Positions 1,883 through 32,184 of a stretch of 32,897 nucleotides of DNA are shown piece by piece. A program made the position numbers and the translations under genes. The stretch's first letter is position 1; each line of letters opens with the position of its first letter. The DNA comes from Catajapyx aquilonaris (Eukaryota): assembly GCA_000934665.2 (NCBI GenBank), contig KZ539119.1, forward strand, positions 1 through 32,897. Reading direction: 5' to 3'. The notes beneath the pieces were generated by a model, which saw only the letters and a program-made list of their open reading frames with translations, was not told the origin of the DNA and made no database searches.

Positions 1883-1908
1883 AGTAGTATTTGCCTGTAT
1901 TATTAACA

Positions 1909-10944: not shown

Positions 10945-11240
10945 CATAATTACATGTCGTGCTGGAACTTAAAGTAAAGAGTATGTAAGCTATTTATGGG
11001 CTTTCCCCCCCCTTCGTTCACGTTCAGCATGTTGCCTTACAAGTTACAAGTGAAGGTTTCAAGCCATATGTGGAATGAGCGAACTCAAAGTGCAAAGTTG
11101 ACATTTTGCCTTAAAGCACGTACTCAGTAGACATCCTCTTACTTGCTGCTTTGAGCTTAACAAGCTTAATAAAGTGTAGTTAACAACAGCACTTTATTGT
11201 AGCACAATGTACTGTAGTTATTCTCAAGCGTACCAAATAG

Positions 11241-11279
11241 GTCCTGGAATGCTATTATTGCACTTTTTTAAGGGGACAC
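11241..11279 (-). repeat. Conserved unit-start motif, copy 1 (viral gene-junction-like)
   Basis: + strand gtcctggaatgctattattgcacttttttaaggggacac. Confidence 0.8.
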
Positions 11280-11339
11280 TTGCGCTTAACCTGAGCACTT
11301 GAAGTTTAGAACTAAGAAAATACCAGTAACATAATGTTT

Positions 11340-11950
11340 ATGGCTAACGTTGTATAAAAAGGCTTAACATTTAGTTCCAATTGGATCACATTGTGTACCT
11401 TGGCAAGTATTTTTGGACCAAGAAGATGCCATTCATTTGCATGCTGGTGCATGTAGAAGGAGATAGGAGACTATTCCTGTCTTTATGCATTAGCTGCTCT
11501 TCCTTGAAGCATCATGCAAAGAACCGTAATTCTTCCATATGGATGTCCTGGGACGATTTTTAAACATGGATCATATGTCTTCATTTTCATATATTTTTCA
11601 GTCAGCTGCATGGCACGAGAGGGGTTTATCTCACGGCTGCACTATTTGCATCTGGGCTACATTTTGACCACATTAAAAAGTCAATAAATCCTACTAATAC
11701 ATAGCTGTGCACCTTAAAATTTGCCAATGCATAGTTCATGCCATGACTTGGGAACAGTGATGCAACATAATGGTTTTTCTAGAAGTCTGTAAAGCGAATG
11801 GATATCATTCGACACTTGGAGTCCGTGTTACTTTTGTCGTCTTCAGGTGCACTTGGTCCAGATGGAAAGTTGGTTGATGCGACAAGAATACTTCGAGAGA
11901 ATATCTCGTCGATAGTAGCTACATCAGCAGTCACTAGACTATACTTAAAG
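11340..11950 (-). pseudogene. Divergent N-like EVE fragment
   Basis: TNFPSGPSAPEDDKSN aligns with HFPHGTIITPEDEKSN of the 13.3-14.4 kb copy. KIVPGHPYGRITVL is duplicated at 23880-24190. catgccatgacttgggaa is shared with ~26731. Confidence 0.45.
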
Positions 11951-12559
11951 TAACAGCTTAAAAGTAAATCCCTTCAACTTGGAATTTTACACGATGCAAG
12001 CACCACTTTCCATGATATTTCTAAAGCCTGTTATTATGTGAGGGACAAGTACTTTATGAAAAGTGAATTTGCGAGTTGGGTGGGAGCAAGTGGGTGGCTA
12101 AGGCTATGGTGATGGTCGGAGTTCCTTTTTTTAAATAATTCATGTTTGAGGCTTTCTCTGTAGTTCCCTGGACCCATCTCAGCCTTAGTCCGGAAAAAGT
12201 GTATGGTGATTCACTCTACATGCTTAATTTACTGACTTGTTAAGCATGCTATGTGCAGATTCCAGATTCTGGTTTAATTAGAATGACCCTTTCCTTGATG
12301 TGGAAGTGTGTCCATTTATTGGAACATATTAATCAAAATATTTAAAAATACAAATCTGCATGTTGCAGCACCTAGTATTCGCAAAGCCTCTTCGTGTGAT
12401 AAAGTGAGTATGACAAAACCGTAATTACACATATAAAAAGGGCCCTATCCGTTGTTGTGAGTCATTAACAACTGTTGGTGTACCGTTGATGGTACACAAG
12501 AGCATGTATTGTAGTGGTTTAGGGACTAACTTACACAAAGACAAAATTAGTCTCAAAAT

Positions 12560-13100
12560 CAGCGAATGGAATGATTACACCAGTTTTATACATTTGAAAA
12601 TGTAGATTGAATGAGGCAAAAATTGGCAATTCAACTCAACCCACCTGCTGATCATCCTCCATATATGTTATGCCATATGGGTAAAAAAATCGTCGTCCCA
12701 ACAGAATGTGTTTGCAGTGTTGTCTGCTTTGCAATGTGTCCGGATGTTGACTATCAGTCGTCGGAAGCATCCAGTTTTCAGATTTTGCATAATTATTATG
12801 ATTCCGCTGAGGCGCTTTCACTATGTTATTTATGGTGTTTCACAATGTTGCTGTTGGGCTGAAGCTCTGAATTAATGTATCAAAGGTTGGTTTCTTTATG
12901 TGTTGGAAGGGAATGGTATTCCGCTGCAGAGCCAAATACGAGTATTATTGCTCTCCTTTTTTCGAGTCTAAAAGTGGTGGTGACTGGTGTTGTATTATGG
13001 TGAGCAGAACCATCTCCTCGCATGATTTCATACTGTGCTGATTTTTCTTAATCCTGCAGGGATATATTATCAACATGTGAATCGTCAAAGGGCGATGTTT
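12560..13100 (-). pseudogene. Degenerate ORF downstream of N-like gene (possible phosphoprotein-position gene)
   Basis: IKKPTFDTLIQSFSPTAT..YMEDDQQVG is homologous to 29150-29750 (VKKPTFDTFIQSISPTAT..HMEEDEQVG). Identity is inferred from position only. Confidence 0.35.
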
Positions 13101-13379
13101 CATAACAGTGTGGAGATATCTCTGTCAGGAAGGAAATATGAAACATGCACATTCCTGCCATGTCTTAATGTGAAATGTGAAAAATAATTACTAAGTATTT
13201 TATGGCTTACCAATGAAGCTTATGATTCTCTTGGGACAAAGACCTCTTATGACTTGTCACTACTAGCCCTTTTCTGTAATCCATAGAAAATACTTATACT
13301 CAAAATGAGGTGGAATAGTCCAGAACAAATTGATTCTGTAAATTCGCAGATTTATTTGTCGTGTGTGTGTGTCGTGTAA

Positions 13380-14377
13380 GGTGGTCCTGAGATAACGCAA
13401 TAAGTACACCTGACGGCATTGTTTCCATCAGAATATCAACACTGATGCTTGATTAGTTAATGAAGATGGCTTATGGGGTATAGATAGTCTCCATTGTCCT
13501 TGCGAATTGGCTAATTTCACTTGATACAAGTGTCCGCAACTGCTTCCATGATGGTAACCATATGCTCAAAGTGCAATCTTGAATATTTTTCACTGTGTAA
13601 CGGTGTGCTGTATTGTCAACATGAGTGCCCATTGCTGAAATTATTGTAGGTGAATGGTAATAGTATTTGGTACAAATTGTTGCCGTATTTTGTTATTTGT
13701 AATTTGTGAACTCCGTTGAGCAACATGGCCTTGTGGGAATTATACTTCTGTTTTAATTCTGCTAACAGCTTTGAACCCTGTTCATCCCCAGCCTTGATCT
13801 ATAATGTGAGTGGGGCGTGACCAGTTCTGAATCTCAGTCTCAATATGTTACTCCTTGTTAGATATGAGTTGCAATGCATTTCGTAAATGGCACTCTTTTA
13901 TTTGTGCATCTGTTTGGCTGAAGACCATGTTATAAATTGATTAATCCAGGCCTATTGCTTTTTTCATCTTCAGGTGTAATTATTGTACCATGTGGGAAAT
14001 GCACATGACAATACGAGTGATGGTGTCTTCTTATGGACCAAACATGGCGACCACCACTTGTCATTTCCACTCGTCCCAACCTTTAACTATAGAAAGTGTA
14101 CCATGTTGCCGCCCCTGGTCCCGGACCCTGCCCACCTGAAGCTCAACACTGAAACAGCCGCAACAAGAGGACTGGCTTGTTGGCAAGTAATTATGCCAGG
14201 GTTGGTTAATTCTCTTTGTTTCAGCTTCAGGACTGGCCCTGCTTTTGTCACTGAGAAGTCCGTTTACGACATGATAATAAATGGGTTGCAAGTATCAAAC
14301 TGAATAAGTCAAAACTGAAAAAATGCAAAATGTAGCTATTTTCACCAATTGCAAGTACACCCTGGAAGGCTTTCATT
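13380..14377 (-). pseudogene. Nucleoprotein-like EVE (Mononegavirales/Jingchuvirales-like)
   Basis: In order: VVAMFGP (~14035-14055), FPHGTIITPEDEKSN, GDEQGSKLLAELKQKYNSHKAMLLNGVHKLQITKYG, RLHFEHMVTIMEAVADT (~13530-13580), SEISQF (~13504-13521), GDYLYPISHL (13463-13492). The order matches the C-terminal lobe of borna/nyami/xinmo-type N proteins. Multiple stops and frameshifts. Confidence 0.6.
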
Positions 14378-14397
14378 GCCCTTTTTTAAGGGGACAC
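14361..14397 (-). repeat. Conserved unit-start motif, copy 2
   Basis: + strand cctggaaggctttcattgcccttttttaaggggacac. Confidence 0.8.
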
Positions 14398-14402
14398 ATG
14401 TA

Positions 14403-14612
14403 CTATGGGCGCCAAAAGAATTGACCGGAGTTGATGGGTATATGGCGCTATATACCCATCAACGCCGGTCAATTCTTTTGGCGGCCCATAGTACGTGAAT
14501 CGTTCGTATATCGAGAAGCTTGTACTATGGGCGCCAAAAGAATTGACCGGAGTTGATGGGTATATAGCGCCATTTACCTATCAACTCCGGTCAATTCTTT
14601 TGGCGCCCATAG
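14403..14612. mobile_element. Double-hairpin MITE (Tc1/mariner-type TA target)
   Basis: Two near-perfect ~95-bp palindromes (14400-14494 and 14522-14615) built from ctatgggcgccaaaagaattgaccggagttgatgggtata. TA at 14401-14402 and 14613-14614. The empty site is seen in the homologue at ~31975-32005. Confidence 0.85.
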
Positions 14613-15179
14613 TACTACCTGTTCACTAAAGCAAAAATTATTTGAATATTCATTATACTGATTGAGGACATTGTCCGCACTAAGGTAGTTCAAGGATGGG
14701 CTTACAGCCATGCATCAACGTCAGGAGCTAGGAGTGGTCCAGTTGGGTAGTTGCGAGTAGTTAGATTTGCGCAGGGAACGTCGATAATTTCACATAAATG
14801 TTAATGGGAATCATAGTTTGATTTACATTAAACAGTGCCTATGCATACTACATGCATCAGTTGGGCCCATTGTGTCTTGTGAGTTCTTAGCGTCTAGACA
14901 CTGCCTCATAATGAGCGCAAGTTGATATGAAAGCATTTCTAATTGAGCTCACTTGCATTAATTTGATACACATAGTCAAAGCGGAAGTGTTCTTTCATAA
15001 TTATTATTTTACAATATCTGTGGAAAATGGAGTGTATGAGGCTAACATGCAGACAGAAGGCTCAATGCAAGTCAGAATATGTTCATGTGGAAAATGTCCC
15101 TCCGTCCAAGGCATCAACGTGTGACACCTGGCTATATTCATCAGGGTTTTTTATTAATATATGCCTACGTTGTGAGAGT

Positions 15180-15660
15180 GGTGCATTGGAAGGCTTCAGC
15201 TAATGTGTTCAAACTGCTGCTTGGTGATGTGGTTTCCTGGAACATGTGTCTTCCTTTGCATACGTACAGTATTTTTTTCAGCCGACTGTGTGGTGCGATC
15301 TCTCTCTGTCACAGTTGCACAGGGCAGTTTGGATCTGGGAGTGCATATGCCCCAATATATTAGGCATAATACTAATATAAATAATTATTCTTCTGATGAT
15401 TTTTGAGGATTTAAAAAAATAATGTACTGATGGTTTGATAGACATCGCCATTTTGGTTCTGCGACTCTTCCAGATCTATCCGGCCTGCTATTTCATCATG
15501 TGAATGTCCGCATTTGGGATGTCTAGGGTTGTTCCTATGGACGTGCACATTTTTCACCTGCCATTTGTAATGTACAGTATACAGGTTGAAATATTAATGA
15601 ATAAGCTCCTTGTATGATGACTCTCTCTGATCCGCATTAGGCATCAGCAAGTCATTCTTC
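15180..15660. repeat. Duplicated degenerate block (copy at ~25080-25480)
   Basis: Shared strings gtgatgtggtttcctggaac, ccagatctatccggcctgcta, tcatcatgtgaatgtccgcatttgggat and tcacctgccatttgtaat. Confidence 0.85.
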
Positions 15661-16329
15661 ATTACACCATCCCTTGAATTTTTGTTATTATATGTGAGGA
15701 AGCAATAAAATCACAGTAGGACGATTTTGTTAGACTTGAGAACCTATTCATTACACCACTTTATTAGCAGGTGGTCGAAATTGTATCAACCCCTTCGTTG
15801 CAGCAGGTTGCAGCATGTCACCGTCTAAGGTCGCAACTACAAGGTGGTCCTGTCGTGCTACCACGTTGTGTGTGTCAGTCGGTATTGAGATGGCCCACAA
15901 GAAAATAATCCCATAACAAATTGGGATCAGATGACCTTACAGGACACAAGGCCTCCACTGCCAATCCACTGTATGTGTATGAAATTAGAAGTAATATTGT
16001 ATGTACTTTTTAGGAAAATGACAATAAGACTATAATTTGACAAATTGTGGTGGTCAAGAAGGCCACGCACGTCGTCAGATTTATTAGTTGTTGTTTCATA
16101 TTTGTTCCTGGCCTGGGTGTTTGCTGGGTCGTATGCTGCTTCCAGTGCTCTGTACAGCTCACCCTGAATTTCGATGCAGATGAGCATTTCATTCTCGATG
16201 GATGTTGTTCAAGAGGAAGTAAAGCAGAGAATCTGAGTCCACCTCATGCTTTTGTCGCCGGGCATGCTCTAGTCCTGCTTGACTCGTTTCTGGATCCTCA
16301 TGTCTAATTTTGACAATTCCACTGTGTAG

Positions 16330-17168
16330 AAAGTCGTGTCACTTCTTTTGGCACAAATATTTAGCACCAGTGTCCGAAACTGCTTCCATGATAGTAATGG
16401 TAATGTGTGCTCTCAAAATCCACTTGAATTCTTCACTGTTTCAGCAGGAGGTATTGCTTACAAATTGTTGTCATGTTTTGTTATTTGTAATATTTGGCCT
16501 GTCCGTTAAGCAACATGGCATTGTGGGAATGTCGGAATTATCAATCTACATGTAACAGCTTGGAGCCCTATTCATCCCCAACCGTTATTGTGGGTGCGTC
16601 GTGACCAGTTAGCCTCAATGTTCCTCCTCGTTAGCTAATGAGTTGCAGTGCATTTTGTAAATGGCACTCTTTTATTTGTGTGTCTGTTTGGCCATATTAT
16701 AACTTGATGAATCCAGCCCTATACTGCTTGATTCATCTTCAGGTGCAATAATACCACATTTGAAATCCGCACCACAACATGAGTGTCTGCCTCTTCTTAT
16801 GGACCAAACATGGCAACCACCACGTGTCATTTCCACTTGTCCTAACCTTGAGAGTAGTTCCCTCTCCCAACCACCAGAGGGGAGCTGCTTACCCACTCTC
16901 TAGTCATGCAGGAGAAGGGAGAAGAAAGGGCGTGTCTCTCTTGCCTGTCTGCACCGCCCAGGGGCCGCCCCTGGTCCCAGACCCTGCCCATCTGAAGCTC
17001 AACACCACACTGAAGGGACTTGCTGGCTTTGGTTTAATTTCCATTATGTTTCAGGACTGGGCCCTGCTTTTGTCTTGTTTATGAAGTGGGGTACACGTAG
17101 GCCTAGTTCATGAGAAGCATATCATCAATATTGCAAGTCGCCGACTGTACATCCTGGAAAGCTCTCAT
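16330..17168 (-). pseudogene. Nucleoprotein-like EVE, paralogous copy
   Basis: Colinear with 13.5-14.4 kb: ggaccaaacatggc at 16801, tcatcttcaggtg at ~16733, aactgcttccatgat (IMEAV) at ~16379. Confidence 0.6.
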
Positions 17169-17187
17169 TGTAGTTTTTAAAGGGACA
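17152..17187 (-). repeat. Conserved unit-start motif, copy 3
   Basis: + strand tcctggaaagctctcattgtagtttttaaagggaca. Confidence 0.8.
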
Positions 17188-17864
17188 TTATTTGTACCCA
17201 AAATGCCTCTTAAGAGTCCTGAGTTTCAGCTGCAGCCTATTTCAGGTTAGCAAGTAGCAACTAGAAATTAATAGCTATCAGAAGCCAATAATTTTGAATA
17301 GTTTTCCAGCCATGACTTGATAATGATAATAATAATACTGTATATTGAAAATGATAGTGTACGTAGATAAGTATGTTGGTATTATCATCCTCACTGCAGT
17401 GCACTGGCTGGAATAACCAATGCATATAGGTGCGGTACACCTACAATTGATCATAATTCATCGCAACGCTCTATGCTCTTATGGGCGTCAGCAGTGCAGT
17501 GCAGTAGTTTTCTGTTGGGATCTACTGTCGTAGGGCTCCGAAGTACTGACAGATCATGATTTGTCCCCTGAAACTGTGGTTATCTTCTATCAACGTGCAT
17601 GAGAAATCACAGGCCATATGCTAGGGGTTATGGTTACCAGCATTCACTTTCTCGTGTTATAGTCATGTATTAATTTGGTTTTCATTATGTGAAAGTGGAC
17701 ATAACTCCCCAATGATTTCACGTCGTCATAATTATGATGCTATTGTCAGTGAAAGGATCGAATTTGTCAATGTAGCGTTCTTCGTGTCGAAACCAATGAT
17801 ATATAGTGTGTATCATATGCAGCACTTCTTCCGCCTTGCTCTACATGCCATGTAGTTATACCCA

Positions 17865-19075
17865 CTATGGTGGTCTCGGTGGACGTAATGTGATTTCATA
17901 ATAATGTATATAAGATAAAAATAGCAGATTGCAATGTCGTGCAGAAGTCATACAAACTGCTATTTTGCACTCTTGGTGTGAATCTAACAGAGCTTGGTTG
18001 ACTGCAGTCGCATCCTCGCTTCCCTTGTTGCATACTATTACTTTGGCTTGACGTATCCATGTTGAAGGGGTCATATGCCACATACTCTTTGAAGAAATAT
18101 GCACCTTCATGGGCAGAATATTATTTTCAAAATTGTGATTAAAACTACCCGACTTTTGATGTGTCATGTTCAGATGGTTCAGATGGTGGCGTGGGCTTGT
18201 ACTTGTGGACACAAAGAATGATAATTATGTACTTCATACTTGTCGGATGTGTAAATTAATCCTTGCTCAGTACAGGTACGGTCTTTTAGGTGACTGGCCA
18301 TTTGATTCCGGAGTTTTAGTAGTTCCACATTTTTTCTAGAAAGAATTACCTTGTGGTTGGCCGGAGCCTCATTGGCGGATCCTTTTAGAGTACTGATTTT
18401 GGACAGGTGGGGCTCTTGTTCGGTTTCCAACTGTTTTACTTTGTCTTCTAGTTGTATCATGTAGCCTTCTAGGTGTTCCTGTTCAAGTGTTGTTATAGAC
18501 TCGCTGGGAAGCGGTTGGGAGGACTCTGAGCCGTGCCTTCTTGCCAGCGGTGTACATCAGGAGACATGTACATGGGCACCGTTGCCTCTTTCATCTCAGT
18601 TCATGGTCTATTCCCGGCCTATATCTCTAGATTTTTTGATAAAGGAGCCGAGGAGAGTGCCAGATGTTCCTGCGGCTTGGGAAGGCAGGATTCTGAACAT
18701 GTCCTGTGGCATTGTAGATTTCCCACTGTCCTGACGGCCAGCTGCTTGTGACCGCAGTGTTCAAGGGGCTTGGATGGCCATGCAGCAGGGGAGCGTTCCT
18801 CCAGATCCCGGACAACTTCAACACATGCCTGGAAGTGGATGATGTGCTTGCGGAACTGAATGTGGACTTTAGGAGGACTGTATTATCAAGGGGAACTCCG
18901 TATCATTAGCATGGTTTGGTGACGGATGGTGACTAATTATGCTGGTGGATTGGGGCATGATGGTGAATATTGACAGTTGGGCTGGTGTGCTGTGAATGGA
19001 CTGGCGTTTGTTGGATTGACTGGCGTTTGTTAGAGCTTGAGTTTTACATTTTGCAATTTTTGTGTAGTGTCTCAT
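17865..19075 (-). pseudogene. Interrupted ORF, LINE ORF1-like (coiled coil plus possible SGNH-like segment)
   Basis: Removing 18526-18871 plus one TSD joins ...EFPLIIQSS to QPLPSESITTLEQEHLEGYMIQLEDKVKQLETEQ in frame. Downstream AKVIVCNKGSEDA resembles the GxND block of CR1/L2 ORF1 esterases. Confidence 0.5.
18526..18871 (+). mobile_element. Non-LTR retrotransposon (R1/LOA-like) C-terminal zinc-knuckle fragment
   Basis: FISVHGLFPAYISRF...SARCSCGLGRQDSEHVLWHC matches the GHGxFxxYLxRF..CxCG..EHVLxxC motif. 8-bp direct repeat ggaggact at 18518-18525 and 18872-18879. Confidence 0.8.
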
Positions 19076-19509
19076 AAGTGGGGAAGGAGGGGCTGTAGGG
19101 CCAAATTGGCTAGTCAGCCCGGAATTTCCGTTACAGTAGCCTACATGTTATGCGTAGCAATATAAGTTATATTCTCTGTGACATGGAAGGCGAACTGACA
19201 CTTGTTCTGGTGACATAAATAATTTGTTTTTTAAAGTGCAAAGCTGTATGTTGCAGCTTCTTGTAACATAATAGTTACAAATCCTTTTCTTGTGATTAAA
19301 TGAGTGTAAACATATGCAGAATTATTTGGTTAGAATGACGGTAACTAATTTAGCTTAATTAAAATACTGTATTTACAGACGGCATTGGCAGTATGCGTCA
19401 GTGAATGAAATCAGCTTTCGAATCTGGAAACTGAAATTTTCCTTTGTCAATGGATGTGCATTTCTGTGACCGTCTGAGCCGAATGTAGCCCATGCATACC
19501 GTTGTCTCC

Positions 19510-19635
19510 CAGTCCTTGGATACAAAACTAAATCCAGTCATTAATTATTAGTATTTAGTAGTAATCAATCATTCTCTTGATGTGATCCAGGCTGGGGAAA
19601 TAGCTGCTGCAATTCCACTGGATGACATTGGCCAT
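19510..19635 (-). mobile_element. LINE AP-endonuclease N-terminal remnant
   Basis: MANVIQWNCSSYFPSLDHIKRMID...FCIQ resembles the IxQWNC....CxQET start of I/Jockey-group ORF2. Confidence 0.5.
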
Positions 19636-20699
19636 TGTTCAAAGATCTAAAGTAATCGTCTTCCCTTCCCTTCCCGGGAGGCATGGCCAATGGCAACTTC
19701 TTGGACGCGTTATCATAACCATTGGTTAGGGTCCATGACAACCTATTCCTGTGGTATCAACAATAACAACACTTTTCATGTGGATTCAAATTCACTATAT
19801 TCCCCTTTTAACTAATAAATACACAGTAGTATACATTGGCACAGTTCGTGGAAGTTAATTCTCGCCAATTTTGAAATTCTCGATTCACTATTGTAGTGTC
19901 GCAAGTCCAATCGTAAATGACACCATGAAGTCGCTCTTTGTTCTACCCCTCGTCTTCCTTCCCCCATGATTCTGCAGTGCCATGCAATAATGTAGCATAT
20001 TTATAATGATAATATTACCCACAGTAGTTCGTCGTCCTAGAAAATAATATTTCAGATTTACATCATGACGCCACATATTTTGCGTCAACTTTTTAATAAC
20101 GCTATTCCCATTAATTTCTGTTAATTCCACACGTCTTTCGTAGCAGGGTGCCGAAGGATGTCTGGGCTCTCAGTCTTTCTATGCAGTCATCTGGTCTCAT
20201 CATTACAGGCTTTTCACGATTTTTATTGTATTGAAAAGCTAAAATGTGTTACTCTTAAAGTGAAATCTTCCAGACCAAGGCTTGCACTTATAAAGCAACA
20301 ATAAACACTAATAAAAATGTTACGTTGCAATGCTAATTATTTATTGGGGATAAACAACTGGCGCAGACTGAATGTGAAGCGACGTAAAGTAACATGCAAC
20401 TTAAAATAGTTTCGTTGCTGAAGATCAAGGTGCATGTTCTAAAAGCGACGTTCATTGCCTGACTGTGAAAGAGCCGGAAAGTGTACGATTACAATCCGGT
20501 GTCTGAAAACGCGCCGTACTCAGGATGCTGGATCCTCACGTCGCGTCGCAGTGTGCAGTACACCCTGCATGTAGTGGACCTTCGCTTCTGCTGCCAGAAA
20601 TGAATTCCTGCATATTCCTTCCAGTATGATAATGAGTGTGGAAAATTATGTGACCAGTTGTGGAGGTCGATGAGCACGGTCCATTCTATGTTTGGAAGA

Positions 20700-20950
20700 A
20701 TGATGTGCTTATTGAGATCATTTTGGAACACTCTGTGATTACATGGTATTTTTCAGAGATTGGGAATGTCGAATGTTCATTCTTAGCTGGTTTCTTGTGC
20801 CATTTTTGTTGGCTTCAGGTCTCCATGATGCTCAGATGACATTTTGTTCTTCTTGGATAGTTCTTAGAACTTGTGCTTACGTGATGGGCGTTATTTTATT
20901 GAACCATTGTGGGTGTTATTGGAATCATGCAGACTGGGTGGAGCCATGAA
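20700..20950. repeat. Duplicated degenerate block (copy at ~27910-28110)
   Basis: Shared gagattXggaatgtc, cttcaggXctcXatgatgXtcagatga and attgaaccattgt. Minus-strand reading QWFNKITPI versus QWFNLISPI. Confidence 0.7.
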
Positions 20951-21299
20951 TTCCGTTGGGAAATAAGTGTCGTCGTCTGCCAGCAATGCACTTCCAGTTG
21001 GCTGGCTGAGTTTTGTTATATCCACCAGTTCATGTAAGAATTCGCCATTTATCATGGGTGATATCGTGAAGTGATGTAAATGTCCTATAACGGGATATCC
21101 ACAATATGTTTATCGCGCACCTTGGTAGGGTAGGTTTTCCTCCAGTTTTCTTCGTAGCTCTGCGCAGGGGCACTGATCAGCTTTGTAAACATGTGTACAA
21201 TGTAAAATGTGTTATAAATTGAAAAATTCCTCTGCCACTGACAGTGCTGAAACTGCCGCTGCCATTTTCTTGTTGCCACTCATTCGTGGTGAGTCGTTT

Positions 21300-22330
21300 T
21301 CATTTGTTCCCTTGGTCCCCTTGGTTTCCTCTCTTGAATTCTTCACTCTTACTTTCTGCTAGTCGTGCACAGGCGCACCCATCATTTGTCAAACTTGCCG
21401 CACCGCTACACCTGAATATTAAATGGCATGTGACCTAATAAGAGAGAGGTGTAGGCCTACCTTCCTTTGGTAAGGTGGAATTTATAATATTGCTGGAGAG
21501 GACTAGGTGATAATAAATTGTGGCCCAATAATTCGGTTTTATGGATTGCGTCTTGGTTGGTTGGGTATCAGGCCCATCATGTTTCCTGTTAGTGCCTTTA
21601 TTGTTCTGATACATCACATATCGTAAGGAAATTCAAGTCTTGAATTTCGGATAATCATGATTTGTCTCCGGCTGGGATATTCAATTGGTGCGTTACGGTG
21701 TTTTACCCTGATCGAGGTTTTGCAATGACCTTATCACAATATTCATGTACACTGTAAAATAACCCACCACTAGTTCTTTGTTGGCCCTTCGTTTATTATA
21801 CAGTACGTTGCTTTATTAGGTGCCATGTAGTCACAGTGGCCGACGATGAAAACTATTTGTCTGGAATCACTCTTTTTGTAATGGTGGGCTGGGCGATAAA
21901 TTTCACCTTTCACCTTTGTACATATGTATTGAAAAAGTCTCCGTCCGTTATGAATCATGTGTCTCCGACGTTATCCTTAGGAACTCTTGATGCCTGATGG
22001 TAACTCGCACCAAATGTCACCAGATTGTCAACATTTGACATAATATTTAAAAAGTCTCATTGCTGTCACAATGCAATACAATACAATTTTTATTACCCCC
22101 TGGTATCCTTGCCAGGGGGGACTTCACTCCCATTACATTGCTGTCACAATTCCGCCAGTGGTGCACGTCTATGTGCCTCTGGTCCAAAGAGAAAAGGGAT
22201 CAGGATCACTCGATTAAGTAAGATCTGGACTTTGTAATTGTCTTAAATCCCTCTTCCAGTATCGGCTTCGGCAAAGCCTCCCGCAGCAGTCCCTTAGCCG
22301 CAATGGTAGAGGCCTCTCCCTCCCCCTGGA
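21300..22330 (-). pseudogene. Highly divergent nucleoprotein-like EVE
   Basis: Follows motif copy 4. ILIPFLFGPE corresponds to VAMFGP. LSEIQDL...KHDGP/xYP occupies the position of EISQF...YP. Little nucleotide similarity to the other copies. Confidence 0.4.
22073..22135 (-). mobile_element. 5'-truncated LINE/SINE 3' end (63 bp)
   Basis: 15-bp TSD cattgctgtcacaat (22058-22072, 22136-22150). On the minus strand: stem-loop ccccctggcaaggataccaggggg, then AATAAA and a (ttgta)n tail. Confidence 0.85.
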
Positions 22331-22351
22331 ACGTCCTTTTTAGGGGGACAC
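22325..22351 (-). repeat. Conserved unit-start motif, copy 4 (internally shortened)
   Basis: + strand cctggaacgtcctttttagggggacac. Confidence 0.7.
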
Positions 22352-22819
22352 GCTTGTACTTCTATAGCAAAAATTAGGGATATTGTGGAAATTGTCCAAG
22401 ACTGAGGATTACAGCCATGCATTTATTATGGTATCAGTAAACATGTGACTTAATTTTGTGATGTAAGTATGGTTACTTAATTTCATTTTAATTATGACAA
22501 ATTTTGTGATTTTGTTGATTGACTCAATAGTATTTATTTAACTATTGAGCCTGATTTATACTACGTATGTTTGGAAGAATCACGCTGATTGAGGTTATTT
22601 TGGAAGACGCAGTGATTTCATGAAGTTGCAGTGTTTTGTATGCTTGAGCAGAATACAAAATATGTTGTGGGACCAAGATGCCTGATGCATTTTGTCACCA
22701 CTGCCCAGGATCTGCGATACAGCCATTTTTCTATATGATACATGGATTTCAAATTGTCAATCCTTTCCGACCAACCGGAACCAGGAGGAATATTCCGAAA
22801 AATTGAGTCGGAGACACAA

Positions 22820-24190
22820 ACTCTACTGGACATTTCATCAGTGTTCTTTGCTTCTATCGCACGAATCAAGGCTACTATCTAGGTGCTCTATGTTGTCCAC
22901 CTCCTCTTAAAGTGATTGTGTCTGAAAACGTCATCTGAAGCTGGAACTTTTGGCAAGCGACGGAATAGCAGCACTGCTTGGTCGAAAATTATGTGACACA
23001 TAATGTGGCATGTTTTTCCATATTTCCCCAATTTATCTAATTTATTCGTTTATGTCAACATTCACTTTGATATTGCTGGTTTATAGGTTACATCCTTATA
23101 TGATTAATGTCAGTGCATTTCATCTAAATGTCCCCTCTCATTCTTGGCAAAGCGACGAGTACGTCACATACTTTGCCAATATTTTTATAGGCGGGACAGT
23201 AGTGTTCCATAATTGGAACTGTCCAAAGAAAATCCCGATGTGACTATGCCAATCCCTTATGATCAGACATGATCGGATGCGATGTAGTGACTCATATCAA
23301 CTCGGTCGAGGTGTAAGCTTGATGCTGTACAGTCACCTGAACCTCATGTCCTGCCAACAACAGAAATAGAAATATCCTGATGGATTTTCAAGTAGTAAAA
23401 ACAATTGGACTGTGTTTTCACCACATTTTTTGCCTCTGTTGATTTTGTGAAGTCCTCTCCTCATCTCTGGATCTTCGTTGTTATAGGCCACCAGCCGCAG
23501 CTCAGAATATGTCGTGGGGCCTTGTCTTCATCCTCTTTAATCGTCTGTCACAGCTGTCTTAGCGTGTAAATGAAAGTGAGAACGTTTGGTAGCCTTCCTC
23601 CACAATCAGCTAGTGTCCTGTACTATGTTGCTTACAAAAGAAAGATTCAAGTCATATATGGAATGAGCGAACTCGAAGTGCAAAGTTGACAGGCTGCCTG
23701 AAAACGTCTAGTTACTTGGTTACTTGCGGCTTTGAGCGAAACGAGCTTAAGTAGTCAACGACAGTATTAATCTTAATTGTAACGCAATGGAGTTATTCTC
23801 AATAGTAGCCTACCATAAACGTCCTGGAACACTATTATTGCCACTTTTTAAAGGGGACGCTTATACTTCACTTCAGACCACTTGGAAAGAACCGTAATTC
23901 TTCGATACGGATGTCCTGGGACGATTCTTGAAATTGGGTCACATAGTCTCCATTTGCATATATTATTCAGTCGGCTGTATGCCACGAGGGGATCTATGTC
24001 ACGGCTGCACAGGCCAGTTTTCATCTGGGCCACATTTTTGGCCACATTAAAAGTCCAATCAATCCTACTAATACATACTGTAGCTGTGCATCTTAAAAAT
24101 TAGCTTGATAATTCATGTCATGACTTGTTGTCTTATGCGATAAGAATGCGTCGCAAGAATATCTCGTCGAGTAGCAGTATCAGCAGTACA
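22820..24190. repeat. Long duplicated segment homologous to ~9680-11930
   Basis: Shared in the same order: ctactggacattt, aagcgacggaatagcagcac, ccaacaacagaaatagaaat, tggattttcaagtagtaaaa, ggaatgagcgaactcXaagtgcaaagttgaca, aagaaccgtaattctt, ggatgtcctgggacgatt, agaatatctcgtcga. Confidence 0.85.
23821..23858 (-). repeat. Conserved unit-start motif, copy 5
   Basis: + strand gtcctggaacactattattgccactttttaaaggggac. Confidence 0.8.
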
Positions 24191-24431
24191 CGATATAGGC
24201 ACCACTTCCCCTGGCATAGGGGAGTGTCTTCGTGTCGCCTATGTCTGACGCTGTCCTCTCGTTCGTGGCTGCTTCTTCTGGGCTGCTTTTATCCAGTCCC
24301 CCGTTACTCAGGCTGATTCGCCTTCGTTACATTGTCGCAATGCTGGATTACTATGAATCACTGCCTGAGTGATCCCGCTGCTCTTGTCACCCTTTACACA
24401 TGGGGCACCCTACTATTAGTCCCCCATTACA

Positions 24432-24868
24432 TACCAGATAACACGGCCCCAGAAGTCGTCTGGGCGAGGCAGATGTTCCAGGGCGAATCCCACCCGCTGG
24501 TCCCGATGTTGAGTCAGCTTGATGGTCTTCTTCGGGCGTCGGCAGTGGACGCCACCTTTCTGGAGTCGCTTCCGGACCGTCCGCGTCGAGACCTCCAGAT
24601 CCAGGATCTCTAGTAGCCGATCAGATGGCTGGAATGGGTTTTCGTCCGTGTGAATGATATATGGCGGCATCTTGCTGCGGAGTGGTCTTCCTCTTCGGGC
24701 CCACCTTGGCTGTCTTCCTGTGGTCTTTCCCCTTCTGCTTGTAGGCATTGACCCAGCGGCGCACAGTATGTGCTGAGATCTCATTGTAAGTTTTTTCCGC
24801 ACAGCGAAAACCCTGCAATTATCCGTCGGGTCACCTCTGAAATGTTGGCGTACTTCATCGTGTGACAT
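24432..24868 (-). mobile_element. Tc1-like transposase fragment (N-terminal HTH domains, frameshifted, truncated before the DDE domain)
   Basis: ISAHTVRRWVNAY..GPKRKTTPQQDAAI, then ENPF..LEVSTRTVRKRLQKGGVHCRRPKK..LTQHRDQRVGFALEHL..DFWGRVIW. Breaks where SDE would follow. Confidence 0.85.
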
Positions 24869-25599
24869 CACCGTAAGAAAAAGGCTGGTATAAATGTATT
24901 TACGTGTTGTCCATCTGCAACCCTTCTCTCTCCTTGAATTTGCTGGCGCTCTGACTGTCACCGATCCTGAAGGACGCGGGACCACTGGTTGTTCACCTTT
25001 GCCTTAATATGTTGTAGCTAACTTCACGCCTTCACTTGTGGGGTTATTTCAGCGTCAGCAAGTTAATACTTGCTGATGTCTGCTCCTCTGTGATGTGGTT
25101 TCCTGGAACGATCATTGTCTTTGACTTTGGGACACCGTGTCTTCCTTCGCACACATTTTTCAGCCAGTTGCATGGCGCGATGGGGGAGTGCATGGTCCAC
25201 AATATATTAGGCCCAATACTACATGTTATTATAACTAATTATTCTGATGATGATTTTTGACGATTTATTACTATTATGTACTGATAGCATGCCCATTTGG
25301 TTCTGCGATTCGTCCAGATCTATCCGGCCTGCTATATTTCATCATGTGAATGTCCGCATTTGGGATATCGATTCTTCGTCTTACGGACGTGTATATCTGT
25401 CACCTGCCATTTGTAATCTGCATGAAATGTTCATGACATACGTGCGTTTATGATGCGAATCAGGCATCAGCAAATCACACATTACTGAGGAGGAAAAATT
25501 AGTTTATGCTTATTCTTCATGTCGTTTACTCGACAATTGCTTATATCCTCTGGACTTATCATTTGTCGTCATCCGCATTTCTACGGTACGGCATCAACT

Positions 25600-25636
25600 T
25601 TATGGGCCTTTATGGTCGGGTCGCCGTAACTCTGAC
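25600..25636. mobile_element. 37-bp insertion flanked by a 17-bp direct repeat
   Basis: acggtacggcatcaact at 25583-25599 and 25637-25653. Confidence 0.6.
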
Positions 25637-26599
25637 ACGGTACGGCATCAACTATTCACATTTAAAACGCAACAAGTGCATCATTTGATGAATAATTTGT
25701 CCGCACGGCTACATATTTATGGGTAGTTTGTGCAGTGGTTCTCCCATGTTTGTCGCTGGCCTGCCTCTCTTGTTTGTTTTCCCCTGAGTCGTATGCTGCT
25801 TCCAGTTCTCTGTTCAGCTCACCATGCATCTTTTATCGGAATTGTGTACTTCCCTACTTAGTGGCATCAGTATTTCAGGAAAGAGAGTGGTCATTAATAA
25901 TGATTTCAATGGGGACAGTGGGGTACCAGGGAAAAAAAGTTGTCTCTTATTTCCAGTTCTCAGTTGTGTTGACATGCAGGCCTCCTTTGCGTGGTGGCCC
26001 TTTGGGTTTGGGTGACGTTAAGCATGCTTCGTGCATATGCCAAATTATGGTGTAATTAGAGCTTCACTAGTTGCATGAAGTGGAGGTGTGTGGCATTCAA
26101 TGCTACCAAATACCATTTCAACATGTGTTGTCACTTACTTGGATTTGTGCAGGTATTGAAGAAGTCAGTCTATGTCTTCTGGTATTTTGGATTTTATTCT
26201 GGCGCTCCCTGCCGTTCTAATATGTTTTCTTCCCGTGCCATATTCTGTTGTATGTGTCGCAATGGTGCATTTGTGTTGCTGATGGAGGCCAGCACTTCAT
26301 CGGTGCCTATGAAGTACCGTGGTTTCATTTCGATTTTAGCAACAAAAAAAAAAATCAATGCCACCATAGTGTCACTGTCTATAAATGATTTTTATAGCCA
26401 TTACTGGTGTATCAGTACCACTTAGCACTCGGATATTTAAATCATTTTCGAATATATGGTCTCCCTTTAATGCGAATAGAAAGCCACTGATATGAGCCAA
26501 AGAGTTATACATCAGAAGAAGTGTTAATCTTCGGCTTGCAAATGGAGTTATCATCTTGTGCAAATAATGTTTGGAGGTCCGAGGTTTATTTGTCCATCT

Positions 26600-27115
26600 A
26601 TGAATTTATTTGTCACATGTTTGAGGTAGAATTGTTCAGAACTGCTCACACAACACTTTTAGAATGGTGCCTGTGATATTTAAGCTACGTTCACTGCAAC
26701 GCCACGTATTATCAAGATAATTTAATAATTCATGCCATGACTTGGGAAGTAGGCCTTCTGCAGTGATGCAAAGTGTATAAAGCGAACCATAAATTGATGA
26801 TTGACCGTAAAAAAATAATTCGATACTTAAAATGGGTTTCCAGTGTGTTGCATTATTCATCTTCAAGTGCAATTGCTCCAGGCGGGAAATGTACTCAACA
26901 AAAATGAGTGGCTGCGTCGTCTTATAGTATAAGCTTAGACCAAACATGGCGACCCGCACTTGTCATTTGTGCTCGTCCTAACCTTTTTAACTTGCAGGTG
27001 AACTATGTTGAGAGTAGTTCCCTGTCCAAACCATCACTATGGGAAGGGACGAGCTGCTAATTACCCCCTCTCTAGTCAGCCACGATATCGCTCTTCCTGT
27101 CTGCACCACCCAGGG
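26600..27115 (-). pseudogene. Nucleoprotein-like EVE, partial copy
   Basis: VAMFG (gaccaaacatggcgac at ~26938) and FPPGAIALEDE. ttgagagtagttccct is shared with ~16848 and, with one mismatch, ~31564. Confidence 0.55.
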
Positions 27116-29999
27116 GTTAAGATATTGGTTCAGATTTTTTTATCTGACAAAATGATTAAGATCATCTTTGCTGGATCCTCATATCGCTGTGTGCAATATA
27201 CCAGGCGTGAAGTGGAAAGTGTCGCTTCTTTCATTGATAGTCTGAGCATGCTCCATTTCCAGGCATCACAAATAATTTAGTCGATTTAGTAGACCACCAT
27301 ACCAATTCATTTGAAATCCTTTACTGCGAATGGGCGTGTCTGGAGATCGAATGTCAGGGTCCATGGAAGATTTGTCAAGAGGATGTAAAAGAGTCGCAGG
27401 TGGCCACGTCTCTGTATGTCGCATGGGCATGATTACTCGATCCTCTATCTATACCGACCAGCATCGTATGTTTTTCTGACTTGATTCAATATATTACACT
27501 CAAAGTTATTATACAGGCTATTTTTTCTGTGGGTGAAAAAAAAACTATAATGTGGTCCTTCTATGATATCATCCTCAGGTTTCAGCATACACTTCTCTGT
27601 ATTGTTGGACACAATGATTCCGAGTGTATTGTTCAGGGAAGTCGCTGACCACTTGGACAGCACCTCAGTGTGTATGACATGTCACACTTTGAGAGCACCG
27701 AGTTCCTTCCCTATTTTCCACATTTTTTCTCCACTTGATAAATGCATAATATCATATTAAATATTATTATATTACAAATAATACACTAATAATATCATCG
27801 CGGCCGTGCCTTCGGTCAACTGGTACTTCTGTCGAACAGAAAATGACGAGAGGGGACATGACTGCCGCACATTTTGCTGTCCAGAGTCTCCCCATCTAGT
27901 CCTGCGAACTCTTAAATGCACAATTTTTATTGAGAGATTTGGAATGTCAGTCGTTCCATGCTTTCCTTTTGTTTCGTTACCGTTGACTTCAGGCCTCGAT
28001 GATGTTCAGATGAAACACTTCCTCTTCAATCGATTTTCTGCGGCCATAGTCCTTAGCACTTGTAGTGATAATGGGCGAAATTAGATTGAACCATTGTAGC
28101 TGGACGAATTCCCCTGTTTCTTGGCATGGTCGTGGAGTCGAATAATTATTTTCAATCCCTGCAGTGTTGCTACAAGGAAACAGTATGTTTCCTGTCATTT
28201 ATATACCTTCTCCGTCGTTGATGAAGGGCACAAAGTGGTTGTTTATGCAGCCTTTGAATAATGGTCGTCGTCCGTCTGTTGGATTCGATCTAACTGTACG
28301 TGTGTCACTTTTTCGACTGTCCGAGCCCTTCGACCCTGGGAAGATCATGTAGCAATAACGATAAAAATAAGTGCTCATATAGTATTATGGAGTATTTGAA
28401 ATCGAGTATTTTTGTCTGGGGGACCTCTTCTTTCTCCAGGGTTCCTGGAAGTCAATTGGCCAAGCTTACAGCCAACCAGAATCAGGGGAATATTCCCGAA
28501 TAAATAAATGAAATCTATAATAAGATCTCCCACAGTTTCATGTCAGTTACTACAGTGGAAAATGGAGAGTTCTGCGGAATTGTCAGTATTAAGAAAATAT
28601 ATCATTGTTGATTTGGAAAATATTTATCCTAAGATTAATACCACTGCTACATCCCATGCCTGCTGTGTATGTTTGGGATGATCTGAACCCACTGTTGATA
28701 AACCGTTCTGGAGCGGTGGGCTGTCCAATCAGTCTCATGTGCGTTTCGTCCTTTGTGTGTGTGTGTGTATTGGAAAAAGCATACCTCCTTCCTCAAAATG
28801 CCTCCGATTGGAAGTTCTGCATGTACAACACTACGTCTTCTTGCTTTGATTTCTCTAAAGCAGAAATATGTACAATAAGTATAGCAATACGCTATATCGG
28901 CCCGATCTTTAGCTATTACTTTATAACTATCTCTGTAACATACTTTTTCAGAAGGCAAATTAAAAGTATATTCCAAATGTTATCATTTTAACTAAACCTA
29001 TTTAAAGCAGAATACAGTACGTACAGTAGTTCACTAAAAACCTCTGAAAGGCTCATTTTTACAGTATCCAGGACCATTTTCGGACTACGTGTATTTTAAC
29101 GAGCATGTTTTGTTGTGGTTTCGGGACGAATTTACGTAATGACAAAATTAGTCACAAAGCCAGCATATGAAGTGAATACGTGGTGCTGCAAATGTCGATG
29201 GAAGGAGGCGGCAACAATGGACAACTCTACCGACCTGCTCGTCTTCCTCCATATGATTACTCACATATTACGTATATTATCATACGTGTATTTGTGCTGC
29301 CAACACACAGAATGTGTACGAAGTGCTGTCTGAGTTGCAATATTATGTCCAGATGTTGTCTACCAGTCGTCGGCATTATCATGTTCCATTTTGCGTAATT
29401 ATTATATTATTCTACTGAGGCTTCTTCACTATGTCGCAGTGTTTGATTTTAGGTGTTGCTGTTGGGCTGATGCTCTGAATGAATGTATCAAAAGTTGGTT
29501 TCTTTACGAGTTATATTAAAAGGGATTGAAGGATCTTCCGATGCAGAAGGTAGCATCAATTGTTGCTCTCCGTTCTTTTGACTTCTGACTACTCCCATGG
29601 AGTGTATACCTTTGAGGTCACAGACTCTTACTGTTAGACGTGGTTGTTGACTGAGCTGAGCAGGCCCATGTTCTCACATACCTACGTTGTTCTCATTCTG
29701 CAGTCATACATCAACATGTGAATCTTGAAAGGCCGATGTTCTGCACCAGCCACAGGCGTAGGTGATGTCCACGCATCAAAAGGTTTAGCATCCATTCCAG
29801 GCCATTTGTGAATATCTGGGCAAGTTGTCATCCTTACGTGCTTCTGTCTTTACGTAAATGTCACTATTCTGTCTACCGTTGCGTTATATGCTTTTCCTGC
29901 CAGGTGGAACACTCGCTTTACTCTTGTCCCTATACGTTTCTACATTAACAGACGACAAAGAGGCACATCAGTCTTACCTCTCTTTTAATTACCTTTGTT

Positions 30000-30680
30000 A
30001 TCCAGTGTCAAGTTGAAGCTTTATGAACAAAATGCCTAATCTTGATTGACAGTCATGGTGTAAATTTTCTTTGATCGAGTAATTCGTACAGTAATCGGCC
30101 TCCCAGTTTTGGCATTGCATTTTAAAGGCGCATTAGTGCGGAATATTTTTCTTTCTAAGTGAGGGACAACGGGAGCCGACTTTGGGCCTCCCATGAAACA
30201 TGGGTTCTTATTTTTAGCAGCTGCAGCCTTTCGTCGCACTTTCCAGTATGCTTGACATGTAGGATTCATTTGCTATTCTGAGTAGATTTGCATGGCTGTG
30301 GTTCGATTCTGGGAAACCATTACTGTCCCCTTGCGTGTCTGAGCAGTGTCCAAGTGACCATTGTTGCCATCGCCTTAACTCAAGCGTATAGCCGGACAGC
30401 AATAAATAAGTGAACCATATTTTGTTATTTGTTATTTGTGAAGTCCATTGAGCGACATGGCATTGTGAGAATTATCCTTCTGGTCTTCATTCGTCTGAAA
30501 GCTTGGGAGCCCTATTCAACCCCAACCTTTATCTGTAATGCGAGTGAGTCGTGACTGGTTCTTAATAACGAGTGTAGCTGGCCGTCGCTGGCAACCCCAT
30601 AACGGGAACATGCCGTGATTGTAATTATTGAATTGATTAATTTTTAATATACGCCTCGTTAGATATAACTTGGTTGTCCT
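30000..30680 (-). pseudogene. Nucleoprotein-like EVE, partial copy
   Basis: 30415-30560 is homologous to 13686-13830 (attttgttatttgt, acatggcXttgtg, cttXXagccctattca). LRIANESYMSSILESAT aligns with RLHFEHMVTIMEAVAD. Confidence 0.55.
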
Positions 30681-30779
30681 TCTCGTTGCCAGACTATGCG
30701 TGATTACTGATTATTATGCTTCTGCTGAGGCGACTTCACTATGTCGAAGTCGTTCATTTCAGGCGGGGATTTATTTGTC

Positions 30780-31959
30780 GTATACAGGTAGTTTCGTATC
30801 AGCTTTTGTATAACGCAATCAGTCCACCTGACGGCATTGTTTCCGCATTGTGTCAAGTAAATGGAGACGGCAAAAGGGGTATAGATTGTCTAGGTCATCA
30901 CTTTGAATTGGCTCATTTCACTTCACTAAGAGCTTATTCATTTTCTGAATTTATCAGTGAGAGATACTGTAGTGGACTTCAATCTGACTTGGGACCAGTG
31001 CTGATAACAATGACTACTTATGTGCAATACTTGGAATCTATGAATATAATTATATTCTCTAACACAGCTTTCAAACTGTGAAAAAACATTGGACAGGATT
31101 GGTCCATTCACTGAAGATTAGTGCCAAGTACAAATTAAATGTGATTAGGAGGGCAATAATAAATTATAGCATGCTGCGTAGAGATTCTATTATTTGGGTG
31201 TGATGAAATTTCTAGCACCAGGTAAAATATCATATATACCGCATAAATGATGCCCATGGTGTATTTTTAAGTGCCTTGGATTTTTAAATACCGGTATTAA
31301 TTATTGTTAGTACAGTCATGTCTCAGGAATATCTCGAACCTAACGTCAGTACGTCGTGACCAGTTATGAAGCAACAGCCTCAATGTTACTCCTCGTATGA
31401 GTCGCAGTGCATTTTGTAAATGGCATTCATTAATTTGTGCCTCATTTGGCTTATCTATAACTGCTCTTAAGAGCATGTTATAACTTGCCGAATCCAGACC
31501 TCTACTTCTTATGGACCAAACATGGCGCTCGTACTAATCGTTTTAGGTAACAAGTGTACCATGTTGAGAGTAGTTCTCTCTCCCAACCATCACTAGAAGG
31601 GAGCTTCTTGCCTCTATCTAGTCATACAGAAGAATGGAGAAGAAGCAGGGACGTCTCTCTCCCTCTCTTGTCTGTGTGCACCACCTAGGGGCCGCCCCTG
31701 GTCCCATAACCTGCCCACCTGAAGCTCAACACCACACTGAAGCGGCCCCAAAATGGGGACTGGCTTGCTGGTCAGGTATAATTATGCCAGGGTTGGTTAA
31801 TTCTCCGTATGTATCAGGACTTGCCGTGCTTTTGTCTAATTTCTGATAAGCCTGTTTATGACGTGATGTGTAAGTACTTTGTACTTTATGAAAAGTGAAT
31901 TTGCACAATGTAGCCATTTTGACCAATTGCAAGTACAGTACATCCTGGAAAGCTCGCAT
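30780..31959 (-). pseudogene. Nucleoprotein-like EVE, paralogous copy
   Basis: Starts MRAFQDV after motif copy 6. ggaccaaacatggc at 31513, SEMSQF (~30905-30922) and DNLYPFCRLHLL (30855-30890). cacctgacggcattgtttcc is shared with ~13407. Confidence 0.6.
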
Positions 31960-31980
31960 TGTACTTTTTAAGGGTGTCAC
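31943..31980 (-). repeat. Conserved unit-start motif, copy 6
   Basis: + strand tcctggaaagctcgcattgtactttttaagggtgtcac. Confidence 0.8.
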
Positions 31981-32077
31981 TACCTCTTCATTGGAGCAAA
32001 AATAATTTGAATATTAATTATTATATTGAAGGAATTGGCCGAGACTAAGGTACTTCAAGGAAGGGCTTAGAGCCGCG

Positions 32078-32184
32078 GGGTGGAATTTTCGTCCCACTAG
32101 CTACTGCTAACTTTGCAGTACCAGTGTTGGCCATGGCACTGATAAGTTAGCAGTAACTATCAGTGTGGGACGAAAATTCCACCC
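32078..32184. mobile_element. MITE with 20-bp TIRs
   Basis: gggtggaattttcgtcccac (32078-32097) / gtgggacgaaaattccaccc (32165-32184), plus an inner inverted repeat tactgctaactt/aagttagcagta. It interrupts the ttacagccatgcat string that is intact at ~14702 and ~22409. Confidence 0.85.

Follow-up and report, generated by a model that had tools for sequence, protein, structure and literature searches.

The motif considered here resembles in form the gene junctions of mononegaviruses. Such junctions consist of a gene end with a U-tract (an A-run in mRNA sense), a few intergenic bases and a gene start, and they separate different genes. As a rule, viruses of this order stop and restart transcription at these gene-end and gene-start signals (PMC12662027). 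Two other kinds of system bear on the locus: old local segmental or tandem duplications, and short non-autonomous transposons of MITE or SINE size. The window, i.e. the whole stretch of DNA that was analysed, is contig KZ539119.1 of Catajapyx aquilonaris (32,897 nt). About 23 kb of it consist of old, decaying, locally duplicated DNA in which a motif with a comparable layout (an A-run, then 2-4 variable bases, then a conserved stretch) is repeated. The original prediction proposed that this motif was either a fossil viral transcription signal or a host cis element or recombination point organising a repeat-plus-cargo array.

Six copies of one motif

All six minus-strand copies listed by the original prediction are present where it placed them.

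11241..11279, minus strand: motif c1, family A; ATA at the start-codon position, without ATG
14359..14397, minus strand: motif c2, family B; ATG opening a 42-codon ORF
17151..17188, minus strand: motif c3, family B; ATG opening a 21-codon ORF
22325..22351, minus strand: motif c4; an internal deletion leaves 27 nt
23821..23860, minus strand: motif c5, family A; without ATG
31942..31982, minus strand: motif c6, family B; ATG opening a 77-codon ORF

The 15-mer head of the motif, searched with up to 2 mismatches, occurs 6 times in the window where 0.09 occurrences would be expected, and none of 100 shuffles reached 6. Five of them are minus-strand copies (11265-11279, 14383-14397, 17174-17188, 22337-22351 and 23846-23860). 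The remaining match lies on the plus strand (3911-3925, 2 mismatches) and is taken as chance. Copy c6 is too diverged for the 15-mer pattern yet plainly homologous (E=4.8e-21 against a profile that was built with c6 included), and c4 alone scores weakly on this profile (5.6 bits, E=0.38). A profile search of the whole window found no seventh copy at E<1.

TTCCAGG and an A-run of 5-6 are kept in 6/6 copies. TTAAAAA(A) is found in five, the c4 version being CTAAAAA; this is the copy that had been called shortened, as its 27 remaining nucleotides bear out. The predicted ATG of M(R/K)AFQ was recovered in three copies (c2, c3 and c6) in the form ATG-(AAA/AGA/CGA)-GCN-TTC-CAG. This ATG begins at base 3 of a conserved CAATG, 5-7 nt after the A-run. 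After codon 8, c6 is out of frame with c2 owing to a 5-nt duplication. The upstream flank of c3 beyond about -25 is unrelated to those of c2, c4 and c6; c4 has a B-type upstream flank and unrelated downstream sequence. Orientation is identical in all six copies, which all lie inside duplicated units.

Duplicated units and their shared segment

The six copies are paralogues in duplicated DNA and not independent signals. They belong to two families of old duplicated units with a within-family identity of 70-81%. Family A has 2 copies while family B has 3, together with a truncated copy (c4) and a motif-less fragment. Collinear homology around the motif extends from -650 to +990 in A and from about -330 to +2900 in B.

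9579..11979, minus strand: unit A1 (c1)
22755..24259, minus strand: unit A2 (c5), aligned blocks 74-80% identical to A1
12497..14943, minus strand: unit B1 (c2), containing the MITE-like insert 14399-14615
14399..14615, no strand assigned: two tandem palindromic MITE-like copies, family D6, within about 7 nt upstream of c2
16366..17189, minus strand: unit B2 (c3), the part supported by homology
26846..27116, minus strand: fragment of a fourth B unit, motif-less (E=1.5e-39)
29082..32313, minus strand: unit B3 (c6), the longest of the B copies, containing a MITE-like insert (about 32078-32186)

Two stretches of A1 are without counterpart in A2 (10551-11043 and 11301-11515), and repeats, among them MITE-like and Tc1-like ones, inserted into the units at a later time. 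Their divergence is frame-free: similarity between copies appears in all frames of both strands, mismatches show no codon periodicity in any of 15 long HSPs (lowest p = 0.062), and one minus-strand frame of B3 carries 59 stops in about 966 codons.

The motif had been said to head each unit, but the homologous sequence reaches further upstream, by about 330 nt in B (c2/c6, c4) and by 470-650 nt in A (c1/c5). Nor does identity peak at the motif within families when the copies are aligned with their flanks, the check suggested by the original prediction. For the A pair, identity in the motif window is 0.88, a value equalled or exceeded by 49 of 1060 sliding 40-nt windows; the corresponding values are 0.81 and 57 of 988 for the B trio, and 0.68 and 509 of 3050 for the long c2-c6 pair. 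Blocks at 0.90-0.95 are better kept, near -278 and +176 in A and near +249 and +545 in B. Within families, the motif is therefore close to being no more conserved than the flanking duplicated DNA, yet it ranks in the top 5-6% of 40-nt windows in both A and B. A second, better conserved block is found in B copies only, with 4 copies located at 14036, 16802, 26938 and 31514, and may resemble an LTR-end/primer-binding-site junction.

Families A and B have a single segment in common. It measures about 150 nt (about -18 to +132 from the motif start), has the motif at its core and shows fuzzy boundaries.

11147..11297, minus strand: shared segment in c1, full extent (about -18 to +132)
23783..23873: shared segment in c5, located by profile comparison

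A profile of the B copies matches the A copies only at this segment (E=1e-09 and 8.5e-06), and outside it the A and B flanks could not be aligned, profiles included. Core identity between families is 0.67-0.85 (mean about 0.76) versus 0.74-0.83 within family B, and the cores of c1 and c2 are identical at 33/39 positions despite their different families. Since core identity is similar between and within families and the flanks are unalignable, only a short segment is shared; the same similarity suggests that this segment is no older than the unit duplications. Several breakpoints lie inside this segment or no more than about 25 nt from its 5' edge. These are the places where A-type flanks give way to B-type ones, where c3 has its different upstream flank and c4 its different downstream flank, and where c1 carries an additional stretch of 215 nt and c2 its MITE-like insert.

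Copy number, coding and RNA searches

Copy number was estimated from the depth of the genome's own contigs aligned at >=80% likeness, a measure that misses diverged (<80%) or short copies. In the motif bins this depth is 41 (c3), 43 (c4), 65 (c2) and 62 (c5), with a baseline of 35-40, while real repeats in the same stretch reach 300-3800 and the MITE-like inserts beside c2 and c6 reach 2500-3800 (about 2500 in the c2 insert bin). At >=80% likeness the motif copies thus have about single-copy depth without a pile-up of contigs, and the motif does not behave as the terminus of a transposon that is common and dispersed. In the four copies tested, the shared segment is not framed by inverted repeats.

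The Pfam scan covered 276 ORFs of >=45 aa (134 minus-strand and 142 plus-strand) and 6 read-through frames of the minus strand, the plus strand being represented by its ORFs of this size only. The sole match is a Tc1 transposase HTH. In this set, no transposon protein domain adjoins the segment and no viral protein domain was detected, arthropod negative-strand nucleoproteins being poorly covered by Pfam. The c6 ORF (77 aa) has no word-sharing candidate among proteins of 42-135 aa, and its best Atlas score is 0.76 with a recognition of 1212, which is low. For the c2 ORF (42 aa), three word-sharing candidates were obtained among proteins of 75-2000 aa, none at E<=1. Some differences in the M(K/R)AFQ(D/G) frame look synonymous (GCC/GCT/GCA; AGA/CGA; GAT/GAC).

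A structured non-coding RNA gene was also considered and rejected. Rfam (E up to 1) gives no family at any motif copy and the tRNA search returned 0 tRNAs. RNAalifold predicts 0 pairs on the minus strand and 8 pairs on the plus strand (-2.1 kcal/mol) with 0 compensatory changes, i.e. neither a conserved fold nor covariation.

A pattern scan of public collections yielded 1 viral contig and 11 metagenome contig matches. None of these 12 extends past the pattern (best 17.2 bits), and the B-unit profile gave one match at E=0.15. The 12 matches are treated as chance.

Origin of the motif and comparison with known systems

The motif is most plausibly, and in our judgment with moderate confidence, the part best preserved within a non-coding segment, about 150 nt long, which carries no signal and was copied passively with the surrounding duplicated DNA; it is repeated because that DNA was duplicated. 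The array may have grown by tandem or segmental duplication and unequal exchange. Mosaic duplication or exchange, of about the same age as the unit duplications, would have brought the short segment into two unrelated contexts, and chance, low mutability or weak past constraint might account for its slightly better preservation. Several observations count against this passive reading. Sharing limited to 150 nt requires an extra event, and the 5' edge of the segment is a place where breakpoints of rearrangements gather. The rank of the motif and the retention of TTCCAGG and the A-run in all six copies could reflect constraint, and the synonymous-looking differences in the M(K/R)AFQ(D/G) frame would fit a former coding start.

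It is very improbable that the motif represents a fossil gene-end/intergenic/gene-start junction, acquired together with a nucleoprotein gene when a mononegavirus-like genome was endogenised, and duplicated afterwards. The form is alike, down to the A-run of 5-6, the 2-4 variable bases and the conserved stretch, but no virus-like protein signal adjoins any copy. Virus-derived ORFs were found on neither side, and no viral domain appears in the 276 ORFs and 6 minus-strand frames, with the coverage of arthropod virus nucleoproteins in Pfam being thin. The ORFs that start in the motif (c6, c2) are without homologues in the searches above. In mononegaviral genes a leader that is not translated precedes the start codon; the ATG here would lie 2 nt into the supposed gene start, which would leave almost no leader. 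Finally, the copies are duplicates of one locus rather than boundaries between different genes, and their upstream flanks are homologous and also non-coding. A fossil viral transcription signal would be a rare find; on present evidence this reading does not hold.

The other alternative of the original prediction, a cis element of the host or a point of recombination organising a repeat-plus-cargo array, is a candidate that agrees with the observations, the motif being the core of a shared segment with breakpoints nearby. Its two parts can be weighed separately. That the segment is a cis element, now or formerly constrained, and the units dead copies of a locally amplified transcription unit, appears unlikely. 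The element could be where a small lineage-specific gene began (start codon and roughly the first 15 codons), a core promoter of TATA-like type whose CCAAT-type box lies about 60 nt upstream, or a splice acceptor (TTCCAG|G). The invariance of TTCCAGG, the conserved A-run and the top 5-6% rank of the motif window in both families are consistent with such constraint, as are the 33/39 core identity of c1 and c2 across families and the GG(A/C)CAAT common to c2, c4 and c6 about 55-65 nt upstream. The ATG of three copies, followed by synonymous-looking codon differences, points in the same direction. However, the ORFs stop after 21, 42 and 77 codons, copies differ in frame through indels of 5 nt, neither the c6 ORF, for which Atlas recognition is low, nor the c2 ORF has protein homologues in our searches, and other blocks are better conserved than the motif. 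The promoter and ATG readings would in addition be mutually exclusive, since the predicted start site would fall downstream of the ATG. As for the second part, it is doubtful that the shared 150-nt segment is a host element acting as a preferred exchange or insertion point that built the "repeat plus variable cargo" layout.

That the segment comes from an old mobile element, either low in copy number or strongly diverged, a piece of which entered the progenitors of A and B separately and was amplified later with them, is rather unlikely. The source could have been a short non-autonomous element or an LTR-type leader region. The restriction of A-B homology to about 150 nt that are flanked on either side by unrelated DNA, the differing upstream flank of c3 and downstream flank of c4, the richness of the region in transposon debris and the better conserved B-only block, with its presumed likeness to an LTR end and primer-binding site, would all agree with such an origin. 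Against it stand the absence of a genomic-contig pile-up at the motif copies at >=80% likeness, of bracketing inverted repeats in 4/4 copies tested, of an adjoining transposon protein domain among the frames scanned and of an extra motif copy in the remaining 9.5 kb of the window (profile search). All six copies also share one orientation and lie within duplicated units. With short non-autonomous transposons the segment has in common its size of about 150 nt and its presence in unrelated contexts, but it differs by the absence of terminal inverted repeats, its low depth (>=80% likeness) and its fuzzy boundaries. The true MITE-like inserts beside c2 and c6 provide the contrast within the array itself.

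The passive reading is closest to old local segmental or tandem duplications. Like these, the locus consists of units of a few kb in one orientation, which are 70-81% identical, diverge without regard to frame, were later interrupted by transposons and are near single-copy elsewhere (contigs, >=80% likeness). Unlike them, its two families have only 150 nt in common, with breakpoints at the edge of the segment, a situation not predicted by a simple duplication history. This short segment in two otherwise unrelated families is the sole unusual trait of the locus and constitutes a modest lead on how such arrays rearrange, the remainder being an ordinary patch made of decaying local duplicates.

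Motif copies and duplicated units

The motif, an element of about 40 nt read on the minus strand, is present in six copies, and both their number and their coordinates are borne out: a pattern scan finds five on the minus strand and homology gives the sixth. The 15 bases of the motif head, allowing at most two mismatches, match six times in the window for 0.09 expected, and none of 100 shuffles reached six. A plus-strand match with two mismatches at 3911 is taken for chance. A profile was made from five of the copies and necessarily recovers them; it matches c4 weakly (5.6 bits, E=0.38) and finds no further copy in the window at E<1.

Motif copies (numbered by first base, plus-strand coordinates)
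11279, minus: c1, motif-head match
14397, minus: c2, motif-head match
17188, minus: c3, motif-head match
22351, minus: c4, motif-head match
23860, minus: c5, motif-head match
31942-31982, minus: c6, more diverged, homology clear

The ATG-bearing M(K/R)AFQ form occurs in three copies (c2, c3 and c6), also as predicted. Both family A copies (c1 and c5) carry ATA in place of ATG, and c4 has lost this part of the motif.

When the window, which is animal DNA, is compared with itself, the copies fall into two families of duplicated units. Collinearity relative to the motif extends between about -650 and +990 in family A (c1, c5), with 74-80% identity, and from about -330 to up to +2900 in family B (c2, c3, c6), with 70-81% identity. 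A fourth B fragment (26846-27116) lacks the motif. The upstream flank of c4 is of B type (positions -158 to -57 correspond to -311 to -197 in c6); a deletion lies inside its motif and the downstream sequence is unrelated. The motif had been described as heading each unit. However, upstream homology spans hundreds of bases in both families and the motif is therefore internal to the units. Every 1-kb bin between 6 kb and 32 kb (6001-32000) has a negative AT skew, the plus strand being T-rich; such an asymmetry would be consistent with duplicated units that all run one way, or with a long transcription unit.

Conservation and the segment shared by both families

The motif is well kept within families but is not an identity peak relative to its flanks. 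In sliding 40-nt windows, the motif window is 0.88 identical in the A pair (equalled or beaten by 49 of 1060 windows), 0.81 in the B trio (57 of 988) and 0.68 in the long c2-c6 alignment (509 of 3050), and other blocks reach 0.90-0.95 (in A around -278 and +176, in B around +249 and +545). All four B copies carry a second conserved block, specific to B and better kept than the motif, with 0-2 mismatches across its 17 bases (0.06 chance matches expected). Its form (…ACA then TGG…) may resemble an LTR end beside a primer-binding site.

Second block, B copies only
14036-14052, plus
16802-16818, plus
26938-26954, plus
31514-31530, plus

A profile of the B units matches the A units solely at 11147-11297 (E=1e-09) and 23783-23873 (E=8.5e-06). 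The shared stretch, about 150 nt long, spans approximately -18 to +132, in agreement with the search of B units using an A profile; it is the only one common to A and B and the motif is its core. Between families the core is 0.67-0.85 identical (mean about 0.76), similar to the 0.74-0.83 within B, and a comparison across families, c1 with c2, gives identity at 33 of 39 core positions. The flanks of A and B do not align, whereas those within a family do. Since flanks of the core's age should still align, the segment lies in two unrelated contexts; judging from these identities, it may be no older than the unit duplications.

Several rearrangements fall inside the segment, on its 5' edge or close by. 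A/B homology stops at about -18, a 215-nt stretch at -22 in c1 is missing from c5, two MITE-like copies sit no more than about 7 nt from c2, the upstream flank of c3 is unrelated beyond about -25, and c4 is broken internally.

Repeats and RNA-like elements in the window

Other elements (depth: the genome's own sequencing contigs placed at at least 80% likeness, baseline about 35-40)
10877-11008, plus: full-length U4 spliceosomal RNA match (75.9 bits, gathering score 46)
14399-14615: two tandem palindromic MITE-like copies, 93% alike, just upstream of c2
18403-19736: dispersed repeat by depth (about 120)
24419-25003, minus: Tc1-type transposase fragment (HTH_Tnp_Tc3_2; 41 bits, cut-off 31.5)
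25073-25739: dispersed repeat by depth (about 3000)
28408-29074: dispersed repeat by depth (about 300)
32078-32186: hairpin-forming MITE-like insert upstream of c6, depth up to tens of thousands

The U4 match sits in the c1 unit, within a 493-nt stretch (10551-11043) missing from its sister, the c5 unit. By eye, this possible variant or pseudogene looks U4-like in its 5' half and diverged in its 3' half. The bin depth of the MITE-like pair (about 2500 against 35-40) indicates a high-copy family. The insert upstream of c6 gave a weak match, below threshold, to a plant miRNA family in Rfam (33.8 bits, gathering score 100), surely spurious. The Tc1-type fragment is placed between the c5 unit and the next repeats. 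By eye, the end of a plus-strand ORF at 18530-18748 shows a Cys/His knuckle like those that close LINE ORF2.

Depth in the motif bins is 41 (c3), 43 (c4), 65 (c2) and 62 (c5), on a measure blind to copies less than 80% alike or too short to place. True repeats nearby reach about 300 (28408-29074), 2500 (14401-15067), 3000 (25073-25739) and 3800 (31743-32399). At a likeness of at least 80% the motif thus lies outside common dispersed repeats; nor is it seen there as the end of a common dispersed transposon, an outcome that would have refuted the original prediction. In the four copies searched, the segment is not flanked by inverted repeats. No Rfam family is found at any motif copy, nor any tRNA. 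The minus strand has no conserved fold (0 pairs); the plus strand gives a weak 8-pair hairpin (-2.1 kcal/mol) with no compensatory change, not counted as a conserved fold.

Coding capacity and origin of the motif

Protein-level matches between copies occur in all frames on both strands, and codon periodicity of mismatches is absent in all 15 long HSPs (lowest p = 0.062). One frame of the c6 unit is interrupted by 59 stops across about 966 codons. ORFs from the motif ATG reach 42 (c2), 21 (c3) and 77 (c6) codons, the frame being shifted between copies by 5-nt indels.

The most likely account, in which we place moderate confidence, is that a 150-nt non-coding segment has been carried along passively within a decaying array of local duplicates that has also been rearranged, an ordinary kind of sequence. 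Retention of TTCCAGG and the A-run in all six copies, the rank of the motif window (top 5-6% in both families) and a few post-ATG differences that look synonymous count toward some function. Together with the c1-c2 core likeness and the 5'-edge breakpoints, they keep two other explanations alive: a host cis element, former or present, and an old low-copy mobile fragment, both of them unlikely.

The original prediction also proposed a fossil mononegaviral gene-end/gene-start junction. A relic would lose its frame after integration too, so the frame tests by themselves do not decide against this reading. However, no viral Pfam family was found in 134 minus-strand and 142 plus-strand ORFs, or in the six read-through minus-strand frames of 6001-32897 (translated with X for stops); the Tc1-type transposase HTH (24419-25003) is the only family over cut-off in these scans. 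The c6 and c2 ORFs have no homologues in a large protein collection, among proteins of 42-135 aa for c6 and 75-2000 aa for c2, and the best Atlas lead for the c6 ORF scores just 0.76, its recognition being low. A degenerate motif pattern gives one match in viral contigs and 11 in metagenome contigs, and these 12 show no likeness to the segment beyond the pattern. The absence of homology of any sort, together with paralogous, non-coding flanks, disfavors a viral origin, which appears very improbable. Viruses of the mononegaviral order do transcribe in stop-start fashion at gene-end and gene-start signals (PMC12662027); the motif and such a gene junction are alike in form only.
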